DNA from: Octopus vulgaris
Taxonomy: Eukaryota
NCBI GenBank assembly: GCA_951406725.2
Contig: OX597833.1
Span: 37,758,001-37,822,000 of the forward strand
Length of the DNA: 64,000 nt
Direction of reading: 5' to 3'
The notes under the pieces were generated by a model, which did not search any database, was not told the origin of the DNA, and worked only from the letters and a program-made list of their open reading frames with translations. Numbering within the stretch: position 1 is the first letter of the stretch; each line of letters starts with the position of its first letter. Both the position numbers and the translations under genes were made by a program. This document shows positions 7,699-17,937 of this stretch, piece after piece.

Positions 7699-8189
7699 CT
7701 GAAACAGATCACAGGAAATAAAAATACTAAATAAATGAGATTTGCTTGGTTGAAATTCATAACATACTCCAATATCAACATATTCTGACAAAATTTTTAA
7801 AAAAAGAAGAAAAAACCCCAGAAATTTATTCTATGTGGCATGACAACAGTTAAAGTAAAACTTGGAGGAAAATAACAGATGCAAGAATCTAGCAAATTAA
7901 AACACAGAGATCCCTGAAACGAGGAAAAATAAAGTCCCATTGCTGCCAACATTACAAACACCACAAATGTAAAATCATAAACAAGTGCTCAAGACTACTA
8001 CACCTACTTCTACACACCCGCAAACCAAGACAAAGAAGGAGTCTACTCCCAGTTGCCAGAGAAAAGCAAGTTTATCCTGAATGCTCTTCCTCCCAAACCA
8101 ACATCAACTGCAGTGACATGGAGAAAGAAGAGCTGAACAATCAATGGATCACAGTGACAAAAGAGGGTAGTGACAGGAGCAAACTTAAT

Positions 8190-9725
8190 TTCGTACCTAG
8201 GCAGCTTACAAGGCTCTTGGTGACAGATATGAGATACTGCGAAAAGCCAACCACAGCCTCTGAAATACAGGAGGCGATGAGCGATTGCACAAGTCGCAAA
8301 TCACTCAGTTTGGATGGTTTGCCCTGTGAATTCTATGTTTTCATGCCAGATTTGTTTGGCAATCTCTTGGCAGATGTCTACAGTAACTGGCAGCAGAACG
8401 GGAGAATTTCTACCGCTGTTAGGTAGGGTGTGGTAACACTGCTGAGAAAGGATGCTGACAATGGGGATGTGCTACAGGCCATAACTCTGCTAAACACAGA
8501 GTTTAAGATTTTGATCAAGGTGTTAGCACAAAGGTCAGTGCTTGTTGTTGGTAGTCTGGTCAGGGATGAACAAACGTGCGCAATGCCAACTAGGTCTATC
8601 AACAACAACCTCTACCTAATGCGATACATCATAGAGAGGGTTGGGACTAAAGCAAGCTACGGTGGGGCCCTGATCAATTTAGATCAGTCGGAAGCTTTTG
8701 ATGGGGTAGACCATTGCTACTTGGAAGCTGTCCTTAAAGTGACTGGTTTTGGACCTGTTTTCAGAGGCTGGATTGCTGCAATGCACAACAGCACCTGCTC
8801 GGTGGTCAAAGTAAATGGCCATCTATTGGAACTGTTTAGTATTGCACATTCAGTCCATCAGGGCTGCCCGCAGTCACCTCTCCTGTATGTGCTGGTTCTC
8901 GAGCCACTACTATGGACATTGGAACAGTTAAGAGGCTTCTTTTGAAATTGAACTTGGGAGGGCAGTGTCTGCATATGCAGACAATATCACCATCATAGTG
9001 TTGGATGCCTCCAAAGTGGAGATGGTCAGCCCCATTGCAAAGGAATATGAGTCTCTTGCAGGGGCTAAAACCAATGCCAACAAGTTGGTGGGTTTGTGAC
9101 TGGGCACCTGAAGAGGCAGATTGATGTTGTCGGACACTGGACTGGCAGACCAGTTTAACAGTTCAGGGTCTGGTTTGGTCCCGACCTCCAGGTGGATAGG
9201 ACTTGGGAAGTGATGATGAACAGGGTGACCTCTCTTACACAGAAATAGGTAGAGGGGAAGTTGTCCCTAAAGGTCGAGCAGAATGGCAAATGCCTACACT
9301 GCCTCTGTCATTATTTATCATCTGACCGTCATGCCTTGCCCTAATTACTGCTCGATTAGATTGGAGTGTATCTTGTTTATTTTCTTGTAGAAGGGACATG
9401 TTCCAATGGTCAGGCGGTTGGTCTGCTGCCAACTTCCTTTGCATGGCAGCTTAGTAATACCATGGCTTTTAATGCGCAGACACACACTCAGGTTGCACCA
9501 CCTACATTGATTTTTAGAAGGTGAACATGTGTGGGCACCATTTGTGAGACACGCTTTTCTGCAGCTCGTCTCCTTGACGAAGTTGCAGTCCTGGGTAGAG
9601 GATAGGCCAACACTGGGCACCTGGCACTTAGAATGTCATCAGGTGCTCACTGTCCTCTACAAGTTGGGCAATAGGATGGGTGGATGTTCCACTTTAGATA
9701 TTTACAGAGGATTAGTAGTGGAGAA
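8190..9725 (+). mobile_element. Decayed L1/Tx1-clade LINE ORF2 (reverse transcriptase) fragment
   Basis: Motifs SLDGLPCEFY, ITLLNTEFKIL, LDQSEAFDGVDH, QGCPQSPLLY and AYADNIT (YADD). Stops and frameshifts throughout. Confidence 0.9.
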
Positions 9726-14288: not shown

Positions 14289-14411
14289 CTTCTCTTTAAA
14301 GTCCTCTTTGAGCTTTTCAAGAAGTTTTTCATGTTTTGCCTCAATTTCTTTGGTTTCTGCTTGATGTTTCTCTTTCAGACTTTGGCGACGTTGTTGAAGA
14401 ATATCTTCAAG
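14289..14411 (-). CDS. CEP164: CEP164-like coiled-coil exon (LEDILQQRRQSLKEKHQ...KLKEDFKEK), phase 0-0
   Basis: cctacag acceptor, AAG|GTAAAC donor, 123 nt. 'ELEDILQQRRQ..EKH..H..LKEDFKEKE' resembles my recollection of human CEP164 'ELSSLLREKRQEVEGEH..EH..AREQYEAEE'. This comparison is from memory and needs BLAST. Confidence 0.9.
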
Positions 14412-15382
14412 CTGTAGGAGCAATGGAAGATTTCATAAGGTGAAAAATTGAACATATGTATGAATATATATGTACACATACACATGTGTGTGTGTATGTG
14501 CTTTTGCGTCTGTGCTTGTCCCCATATATACTGAGTGGAGGCGCATGTCTTAGTGGTTAGGATATCGGACTCATGAATGTAAGATTGTAGTTTCGATTTC
14601 CCAACTGGGCAACACATTGTCTTCTTGAGCTTCATTTCACATTGCGGCAGTCTATTCAGCTGTTGAAAATGAGTAATACTGTGATAGACTGGCGTCCCAT
14701 TCAGGTTGGGAATATATATGCTGTGAAACCGGGAAACTGGCCTTTATAAGTTGGCATGACTTGAGAGGGTAACTAGCTTTACCATACATACTGAGAGGTT
14801 GACTCAGTTCTACATTACCTACTATCATAGATACAGATGCATAGAGTCAGACTCTGACTCCATACATGTGAAGACATGCCAACAAAACTTTGAGTAATGA
14901 GCTGAATGAACCTGTAATTAAATACTTAAACTCTAACTACACATGTTGAGTGCTACTTTCTTTCATGTATATAAATTTATTTATTTAGATAGAAAAATAA
15001 TTATACAAATAAGGATACACATCACAGAATGACAAAATGGAACAAGCAGAACAAGAAGAATCACATGGGATAAAGTCATTGAATAAATCACAGAATGTGT
15101 AGTGAAAGAACTTTGACAAAGAAGCGAAAATAATAGTAATAAAGCTGAAGGGAAGAACAAATATATAATATATAATGCATGTGTTTAATTGACAAAGTGT
15201 GACCTTCGCCAAGTATAACAATATCTGTTTCAATACACTATTTTACATCAAGAATTTTACAACACAAATACATTAACATATATGTGTGTGTGTGTGTGTA
15301 TACACACACATACATATATAAATATATATATATACACATACATTTACTGATATATATATACACACATACATACATTTATATG

Positions 15383-15413
<31 letters not shown>

Positions 15414-15562
15414 CTGGAGTAAACACATAAATGTGAAACAAGGTGGAAAAAAGAGAACTCAAATACCAGAGGTAGAGTAATATGCTTTATTTAAAAGCAG
15501 CAGAAATTTAACAAAAGCTGTTACTCGGAGTTTCACGTTCCCGTTCGTCGGACAGTTTTTAA

Positions 15563-15606
<44 letters not shown>

Positions 15607-15768
15607 TTTATTGATAAGCTGCAAAAACATCACAAAAACTGTTTTTCAGAGCTTCATGTTCCCGAGTGCGATGTTTTTAAAGCTTTATTAATAAAGCATA
15701 TTACTCTACCTCTGGTATTCGAGTACTATTTTTTTACAACTTGTTTCACATTTATGTGCTTACTCTGG
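15414..15768. mobile_element. Small inverted element carrying the hammerhead (Penelope pLTR or retrozyme-like), embedded in (TA)n
   Basis: Arms 15414-15491 and 15690-15768 are reverse complements. 15606-15664 is a degenerate direct copy of 15485-15543. AATAAA follows the ribozyme. (TA)n lies on both flanks and in the centre. Confidence 0.6.
15513..15560 (-). ncRNA. Minimal type I hammerhead ribozyme motif (U4C core variant)
   Basis: Minus strand reads AAAAACTGT-CCGACGA-ACG GGAA CGT-GAA-ACTC C GAGT-A-ACAGCTTTT. This gives stem I (8/9 bp), core C(C)GANGA, a 3-bp stem II with tetraloop, GAAA, a near-palindromic stem III and a GUA cleavage triplet. Confidence 0.75.
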
Positions 15769-15858
15769 TATATATATATATAAGCACACACACACACATA
15801 CAGATATGGTATATAGAACAATAAATGGTATACACATAGAAACTGAAGTGTCACAAAC

Positions 15859-15978
15859 CTCACGGTTAAGATGTTCAACAGCATTTTGTTGTATTTTAGA
15901 CATTTTTATTTTCTCTGTTTCCATTATGCTACTTTCTTCATGCAAACTTTCTTGAGAATTTAGTGACTGCATTAACTC
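15859..15978 (-). CDS. CEP164: CEP164-like exon (ELMQSLNSQ...AVEHLNRE), phase 0-0
   Basis: ctgtag acceptor, GAG|GTTTGT donor, 120 nt. Confidence 0.85.
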
Positions 15979-17937
15979 CTACAGTTAAGTAGTAATAAAG
16001 TAGAAATAATTAACTTTTACAGTTCTCCACTCACTGACTCTATTCTGTTGGATGGATGTATGTATCTGTATACTGACTCAGCTCTATGTTCGCTAAGCTG
16101 CTTATTGTCCTCTGTGTATTTGTATATGATACAGCTAACATGATTTTTGCCAAAACATGTGTCAGACACCAAAAGTATATTTGGTCTTTTTAGTCCAAAC
16201 AATAACAGACTGAAATCCAATCTGTTGGATGGTAGAATTGGAAGAGTACTAGACAAAATACTTTGTGATATTTGGCTGCGTCTCTTTACATTCTGATTTC
16301 AGATCTTGCTTTCACTTTTCAGAGATCAATAAAAAATAAAGCAGTCAGGCTCACAATCATGAGGTAGTGAGTTTGATTCCTGAACCAGGCAGTGTGTTGT
16401 GTTCTTCAGCAAGACACTTTATTTCATATTGCTTCAGTTCTCTCAGTTGTAGAAATGAGCTGCAACATCACTGGTGCCAAGCTGTATGGGCCTTTGCCTT
16501 TCCCTTGGATAAGATCAGTGATGTGGAGAGGGTAGGCTGATATGCAAGGGTAACTGCTGGTCTTCCATAAACAAACTTGCCTGGACTTGTGCCTCAGAGA
16601 GGAACATTTTTGGTGTCATCCCATGTTCAGTCATGATTGAAGGGGGTCTTAACGCTTTACCCTAATTGATAAAATAAGCACTGGGATTAGTATAATTGAT
16701 TATACCCTAGAAGGGTGTGCCTCAGCTAGGCCACTGTCCAATGAATGAAACTATTTAAGAATAAAAATATATTGCATATTGCAGTTAAACTCTTGAGGTG
16801 ATCAGCCTTAACCGTCTTCCCTTTCTAGGACAAAAACATTGGGCTAACAGATTAGCTTAGTTATCTTGTAAGGGTCAAAAATTTAAGAAGCATAGAGTGG
16901 AGTAACTGTAAAATATTTTGTTAGTGTGCCTACATGACATTTACTTATTTCTGATTTGTTGAGTAACAAAACCCACTTTCCATTATTCCATTGTGTGGAG
17001 CTCATTAACAATAGGTTCCAATCAAAAACTTATCTAAACATGCCCATTGCTAAGGTAGGACACTACCCCTCACTATTCAATGGTGCACTCTCAAATTTAG
17101 AAAGTACAGTTTACAAAAATATTCCTGCAATATAAATTAGTGCCCACCCAGAATATTCTGAAGCACCCCCAGGCACCAAAGTCAGATAATGGGCCTGTAT
17201 CTAAAGCTTCAATGTCATTTCCATATATGGACATATTAGAATGTACAAATTTGAGTTAGTTGAGTAAAATTACTCATGAAACCTCATTTTCTTTGCCTAA
17301 ATAAATACATTATATTCATAGCTAAATCAGAAGGACATGCCCATAACATTTTCCTAAAAATCTGAGACTGATGGGAGAAAGTTAACTCCACAACTAGTGG
17401 TCTGGCTCAAATGCTCACAACAGAATGGCCTTTGTTAAATGTACCCAAAGGTTAGGTGGAAATGTTAAACTGGGCAATAGATCAAATATAATCCAATAAC
17501 AGAAACCCTCCTTCTGACAGACATCCATATGCCTTCATTCACAAGACTTTAATTTTATCCAAGTCTGTAACACAAGACACTTGCCCCCAAAGTGCTGTGC
17601 AGAAAAACTAAACCTGCCACTATTTAAATGCAAAATAGATTTTTTTAACCACATGGTTTTGCTTGCATCCATATACAGACATATTAAAGTGTACAAATTT
17701 GTGTTAATTGGGTAAGATTTGCAAGATTTCTATTTGCTTAGTTCTAGGAGGAGGTTTCCTATTCTCTATTTTAGGTTAGAATAACTGGTCATTTCTGTAA
17801 TAGTTGGTTTGAGTGAATTGGCTTGTAATTCATCTAACTGGACAATTATTACAACTGGTCACAATAACAAGGTTAGTTTCTTTTAATCCTAAGAAGCCAA
17901 CAAATGTGTCACTAAACCAACCAAACTCCAATCTTAC

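Follow-up and report, generated by a model that had tools for sequence, protein, structure and literature searches.

The DNA analyzed here is a 64-kb stretch of the Octopus vulgaris genome (hereafter the window; positions are counted from its first base), and the feature under study lies in an intron of CEP164. The host gene was recognized from an exon peptide with matches to CEP164 of O. bimaculoides (91%) and to a protein of O. vulgaris (95%). In tblastn alignments the gene occupies the minus strand, and the intron, delimited from the protein alignment only, has its GT at 15858 and its AG at 14412. Elsewhere in the gene, the consecutive exons at 62529-62446 and 29011-28928 (tblastn; window 28928-62529) are separated by 33 kb, and a different intron contains, at 7893-9099 on the plus strand and antisense to the gene, broken fragments of a LINE-type reverse transcriptase that were recognized by eye. 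A motif search of the 64-kb window for the CEP164 WW domain found none, and tblastn places the WW-domain exons beyond the window. Another high-copy repeat, with very high depth in DNA contigs, occupies 15075-15260 of the intron that holds the motif. The features of this intron and its flanks are as follows.

15859..15975, minus strand: upstream CEP164 exon (tblastn)
14412..15858, minus strand: host CEP164 intron, GT-AG, 1,447 nt (tblastn protein alignment)
14289..14411, minus strand: downstream CEP164 exon (tblastn)
15667..15770, plus strand: inverted long-tail piece of an older S0-type insertion (a 5' inversion typical of Penelope-like elements [PLEs])
15606..15666, minus strand: S0-type fragment from an older insertion of the lineage, with the short 3' end (only the decayed 3' half of the hammerhead)
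15564..15605, no strand: (TA)21 microsatellite, the target tract between both insertions (repeat scan)
15414..15562, minus strand: 3' end (pLTR) of a 5'-truncated PLE, subfamily S1 (up to 99% identity to other genomic copies)
15513..15560, minus strand: minimal type I hammerhead-like motif (pattern match, folding, and Hydra-clade layout in the available part of PMC8557442 File S2)
15550, minus strand: C4 (canonical U4), the subfamily consensus, forming a CpG with G5 (genome-wide copy counts)
15521..15522, minus strand: predicted scissile bond A17/A1.1 (from hammerhead numbering)
15414..15484, minus strand: optional 3' tail (copies end just before the tail or at its end, each on (TA)n)

The original prediction placed a minimal hammerhead on the minus strand from 15560 to 15513, about 300 nt downstream of the donor and sense to the CEP164 pre-mRNA, with a cut between 15522 and 15521. 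The sequence confirms this reading: the motif starts 298 nt past the donor in the tblastn alignment, in sense orientation, and hammerhead numbering puts the predicted bond at the same place. Its parts follow the type I order, with stem I, the core C3-C4-G5-A6-C7-G8-A9 (C3 at 15551 and C4 at 15550), a 3-bp stem II with a GGAA loop, G12-A13-A14, a palindromic stem III with a 1-nt loop, and a GUA triplet. Ten of the 11 conserved core nucleotides are present, the exception being the C at position 4, as against 11 of 11 in the youngest subfamily. U4C had been given as the single departure from the canonical core, and the change is indeed there, but it is not the only one, since the stem II pair 10.1-11.1 is A-U in place of the G10.1-C11.1 that the available parts of two papers call highly conserved in hammerheads (PMC4209133, PMC3088659). 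Stem I is likewise present, but in longer family members (locus L035) it consists of 4 bp, a bulged C, and 6 bp, relative to which the window copy is truncated distally.

The motif pattern matches once in the 64-kb window and in none of 100 shuffles, and a chance origin was rejected. Neither the window motif nor a canonical U4 relative matched the Rfam hammerhead models (E ≤ 10), the remaining Rfam matches being TA-repeat noise, and folding of the isolated monomer shows no advantage over shuffled sequences (z = +1.0). The hammerhead assignment is thus based on the pattern match and on a close resemblance to the published hammerheads of the Hydra clade, whose layout it shares, which agrees with the Penelope-like affinity first proposed.

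The motif is carried by a stub comprising the 3' 150 nt of an element, without an ORF, inserted in a (TA)n tract and bounded by TA runs on both sides. The (TA)21 microsatellite parts this S1 stub (15562-15414) from an older insertion with a 5' inversion (15770-15606), which lacks the 5' half of the hammerhead core and retains a decayed 3' half; besides these two, no family fragments were found in the 64-kb window. The optional tail would match the PLE signature of two RT start sites described in the accessible text of PMC11167929. The tails of the two insertions face in opposite directions (15406-15498 and 15680-15776), and they are predicted to pair as a hairpin of ~90 bp, ~89% complementary, 80-450 nt from the CEP164 splice donor. 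Octopus is known for heavy A-to-I editing, and a ~90-bp hairpin in the pre-mRNA would be a plausible editing substrate. Among DNA contigs over 14900-16200 from four DNA-sized runs, the repeat was found in organisms A, E, and F, and none of the contigs spanned the insertion.

A first look with the 143 nt around the motif yielded 1,122 genomic candidates, the best 40 full-length matches lying at 97-100%. Exact patterns recovered 1,554 copies with a GGAA loop (positions 4 and 7 and loop III being left free) and 5,389 with a GCAA loop, as opposed to 0 for the reversed-pattern controls; because exact patterns miss older copies, these counts do not give comparable subfamily sizes. A loose canonical hammerhead pattern gave 7,453 matches genome-wide versus 484 for its reversed control, and the matches listed include several other hammerhead families with different stems. 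Copies of the family have fixed 3' ends at two sites ~70 nt apart, on (TA)n (most of the 30 loci listed end in a TA run), and variable 5' ends, and their 5' region often carries an inverted piece. Most are short and non-coding, and the longer ones extend upstream on the same strand via a 3' UTR into EN and RT coding sequence.

A protein search located many long open frames in the genome, and a frame of 727 aa is present in 18 of 20 regions around such frames (the other two measure 725 and 735 aa), and most of those regions have a hammerhead motif before and after the frame, ~3.35 kb apart. The ORF encodes RT followed by a C-terminal EN region and, as judged by eye at loci L090 and L093, contains RWK, DKT, YRDD, CxCX5C, CxxC..E, and N..CxH motifs and no CCHH. 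A Pfam search with the 727-aa ORF gave no match, its homologue P0004 matches GIY-YIG (PF01541), and a PDB sequence search with the ORF returned nothing of note; 1,074 homologues of the protein, nearly all unnamed, were found among 7,999 scored candidates. ORF fragments of more distant Penelope-like families lie beside copies at L019:2025-2795 and L072:6473-6964. The pLTR or partial tandem arrangement, 5' truncation, inversion, and optional tail all occur in copies of the family, and these hallmarks, along with the protein motifs and a by-eye comparison with published sequences, identify the window copy as a stub of a PLE, probably of the Hydra clade. It would have been inserted through target-primed reverse transcription that began on the downstream side of the hammerhead, a start point that would leave the motif in even the shortest copies. 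The loci L093-L112 (e.g., G000:C12:36371000-36378500) form a very young subfamily with canonical cores and many near-identical intact 727-aa frames; this subfamily is likely to have been active recently, or to be active still.

Earlier work has already described hammerheads in PLE pLTRs, dispersed truncated copies, and the Hydra clade, which is known to occur in octopus. As described in the accessible portions of Craig et al. 2021 (PMC8557442), Hydra-clade PLEs similarly have a single ORF with RT and then a C-terminal GIY-YIG; the motifs RWK, DKT, CxCX5C, CxxC, and CxH; (TA)n targets; and a sense hammerhead near the 3' end. Among the Hydra rows available there, stem III is ACUC-N-GAGU, as here, in 5 of 26, and 10.1-11.1 is often not G-C. 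Two differences are apparent: all 26 of those rows in File S2 have U4 (which the search descriptor required), whereas in the octopus lineage C4 prevailed through most of the subfamily series, and the octopus unit of ~3.35 kb, with a ~1-kb 3' UTR, exceeds the <3 kb described for Hydra PLEs. The same source lists an octopus family, Hydra-1_Obim, but its hammerhead sequence differs, so the lineage examined here is another family.

The minimal PLE hammerheads of Cervera and de la Peña 2014 (PMC4209133, consulted in part) resemble the octopus motif in being type I with a tiny palindromic stem III and a predicted dimer, and in occurring mostly as dispersed single copies of truncated PLEs, with nearby pairs on opposite strands. 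They differ in that stem II of the octopus motif has only 2-3 bp, closed by a GNRA loop, and is thereby shorter, without G10.1-C11.1 and without an extra nucleotide after A9, and the core variant reported in that part of the paper is U3-A8 rather than C4. The U4C change itself has a precedent in a viroid hammerhead, where it is reported to be tolerated in vivo (cited in Perreault et al. 2011, PMC3088659), but there it varies the sequence of a complete ribozyme that has tertiary contacts, unlike the octopus C4, which is the majority state of successive retrotransposon subfamilies with a minimal motif. The PAc element of the anole, a Poseidon element (Frangieh et al. 2024, PMC11167929), shares the two RT start sites past the hammerhead, the optional tail, and AT-rich targets; however, it belongs to another clade, with a hammerhead that overlaps the start of the ORF and a tail of 30-40 nt as opposed to ~70 nt in octopus. 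Amniote intronic hammerheads, such as that in RECK, are also type I and intronic, but according to the accessible text (PMC6155905) they are single-copy, conserved across species, and canonical, in contrast to the octopus motif, which belongs to a repeat copy close to its consensus and shows no sign of domestication.

The suggestion that U4C is a lesion that made the motif tolerable in CEP164 did not survive comparison with other copies, and a local lesion was rejected: genome-wide, C4 is the majority state in S1, the subfamily of the window copy, and in older subfamilies. Only 111 of the 1,554 GGAA-loop copies have U4, about what CpG decay gives; among the first 100 of these copies listed, 87 have C4, 10 U4, and 3 G4, and position 7, a neutral CpG site, is U in 7. 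In a set of 30 copies chosen by upstream sequence, blind to the core, 27 have C4. Within the oldest subfamily (29 copies), 16 copies have C4 and 11 have U4 (C4>T), and G5>A occurs in 6 (Fisher exact test for decay, P = 0.003 for C4>T and P = 0.07 for G5>A). Decay on both strands, by C4>T and by G5>A, is the CpG signature of an ancestral C4.

The subfamilies form a diagnostic ladder: S0 has U in loop III, S1 (the window copy) has C, and S2 has A; S3 has U7, a GCAA loop, and G11.1; and S4 has U4, U7, and A11.1. Exact S3-type copies with C4-U7 number 1,206, and in the GCAA group U4 occurs in 62 of the first 100 copies listed. The identity of EN DNA to the youngest copy rises from 69-71% in S0 through 76-82% in S1 and 81-89% in S3 to 90-100% in S4. 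Over 185 upstream nucleotides, 27 S1 copies diverge from their own majority by 5.8% and 38 S4 copies by 0.8%; in the tail, divergence is 1.5% among 7 S3 copies and 0.4% among 23 S4 copies, the tail values resting on 2-23 copies per group and on an S1 set picked by similarity to the window copy. With the repeat-age calibration given for O. vulgaris in the available text of PMC13282606 (0.065 = 18 My), S1 would date back roughly 16 My. The window copy departs from the majority sequence of S1 at only 2 of ~140 places and may be younger.

DNA trees and outgroup-rooted protein trees (with 12 of 29 S4 rows kept and one duplicate S0 row dropped) nest S4 in S3, above S1 and S0. In the rooted protein tree the U4 copies sit inside the C4 copies, with at least four C4 subfamilies below the youngest. 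A single clade of all C4 copies was rejected with moderate strength by an AU test on 16 of 41 rows (P = 0.038), for which the tested group was chosen once the initial tree had been seen and S0 consisted of two long-branch rows. The rooted tree points to a long spread with C4 followed by a likely reversion, and together with the U4 of all 26 published Hydra rows, which their descriptor required, it makes U4, then C4 before S0, then U4 in S4 the likely order. C4 would have arisen before the oldest sampled subfamily and lasted through successive ones, and U4 was likely regained, through a CpG transition, in S4, the youngest subfamily and the one with intact frames.

Of the 38 motif positions, 33 are the same in S1 and S4 and 5 differ, compared with 37 differences in 171 positions upstream, and three of the five differences fall on the five positions that are free in the hammerhead model (P = 0.011, uncorrected for CpG). 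Alignments of the motif across subfamilies contained misplaced rows and were used for viewing only. A survey of genomic copies had been proposed as a check on both core conservation and compensatory stem changes. The core is largely fixed; no paired position varies within the lineage, so there is no compensatory covariation. Position 11.1 runs U, C, G, and then A over the subfamilies, and in the younger ones an A opposite C, G, or A breaks the 10.1-11.1 pair.

Two readings of this history have to be weighed. The first holds that C4 was kept through amplifying subfamilies, over ~30% divergence of EN DNA, that U4 was then regained and the 10.1-11.1 pair given up, and that these steps altered the cleavage rate and were selected; we put it forward tentatively, as possible but somewhat doubtful. 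The second, a serious contender although short of an even chance, holds that the motif of the lineage is no longer a catalyst and is kept as a folded element for RT binding or priming, C4 and the return of U4 being neutral CpG drift. Thousands of copies were made with C4, the changes at 11.1 abolish a stem II pair, and catalytic mutants of the anole element insert unimpaired in vitro, according to the available text of PMC11167929, all of which fits a motif that need not cleave. The 40 nt downstream of the motif are about as conserved as the motif itself (36 of 40 kept between S1 and S4), so the constraint need not be catalytic and conservation does not prove catalysis. Less easily accommodated by drift are the fixation of G5, A6, G8, A9, G12-A14, A15.1, and U16.1 while EN DNA diverged by ~30%, the concentration of S1-S4 differences on model-free positions, and the fact that the motif has three further CpG cytosines, of which position 7 alone became fixed as U. 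A loss of catalysis would be a property of the family and would fit with an inert copy in CEP164. In full elements, the two pLTR hammerheads that flank the ORF ~3.35 kb apart, or those of two RNAs, would dimerize through the palindromic stem III, folding of the dimer probably being aided by the protein of the element and cleavage being weak.

Predicted folding energies agree with the expectation that these hammerheads have to dimerize. The hammerhead dimer lies within 1.0 kcal/mol of the dimer MFE for an S1 copy and within 0.4 kcal/mol for an S4 copy, in contrast to 2.8 and 4.9 kcal/mol for the respective monomers above their own MFE; the window copy, being truncated, shows a gap of 2.6 kcal/mol as a dimer and of 3.6 kcal/mol as a monomer. 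In a 381-nt pre-mRNA context, stems I, II, and III are predicted to pair with probabilities of 0.003, 0.07, and 0.05 in an equilibrium model, which ignores co-transcriptional order; as the hammerhead is transcribed before the second arm of the hairpin, brief folding would be possible. For the minimal hammerheads of PLEs, published work describes no cleavage by monomers and weak cleavage by dimers (PMC4209133). Because there is no intact partner in the window, the stems are predicted to pair poorly in context, and the published PLE hammerheads are weak, the window copy is very probably an inert passenger that would cause no meaningful cutting of the CEP164 pre-mRNA.

The competing view, that the copy is weakly active and cuts some CEP164 pre-mRNA through a dimer formed in trans or with the aid of a protein, altering splicing or the transcript level, is improbable. 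It draws on the sense orientation of the motif 298 nt past the donor, on a core intact at 10 of its 11 positions and on intact proximal stems, and on thousands of relatives that could supply a partner; in trans, the partner would be RNA of the young subfamily, taken to be abundant. The U4C change reportedly reduces activity in vitro and yet permits viroid infectivity (PMC3088659, citing primary work), and the hammerhead of the anole element cleaves only with its protein, so a PLE protein can switch cleavage on (PMC11167929, accessible text). However, the window contains no intact second copy, the stems would seldom form in the intron, and PLE minimal hammerheads behave as noted above. For the anole element, no reads ending at the cut site were found (PMC11167929), and single changes in the CUGA turn led to low activity in a mutational scan (PMC9901934). 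The affinity to retrozymes that had also been suggested, with the copy derived from a non-autonomous retrozyme instead of being the stub of an autonomous element, fits the short, non-coding majority of copies but is very improbable and was rejected, given the absence of a tandem array of hammerhead units at the locus, the variable 5' ends, and longer copies that run into the RT/EN ORF, including ORF-linked copies with C4 (L062, L066, L068, and L070).

The locus itself is ordinary, an inert passenger in all probability, and the modestly interesting part is the history of the lineage. Literature searches turned up neither a PLE lineage with C4 nor one that had gone back to U4, although Lünse et al. 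2016 and the supplements of PMC4209133 and PMC3088659 may hold C4 cases; the accessible text of the O. vulgaris repeat paper (PMC13282606) contains neither "ribozyme" nor "Hydra". One consequence is practical, in that searches based on CUGA miss large families, here 1,206 exact C4-U7 copies and ~1,400 non-U4 copies of the GGAA group. The history also bears on the role of hammerheads in PLEs: thousands of copies with a core change that lowers activity suggest that fast cleavage is dispensable or is rescued by protein. The thousands of young copies with a canonical core allow the intronic strand bias of U4 and C4 copies to be compared as a readout of cleavage in vivo. If the steps did alter the cleavage rate and were selected, the series of subfamilies would be a natural experiment on the weight of hammerhead cleavage in PLE mobilization.
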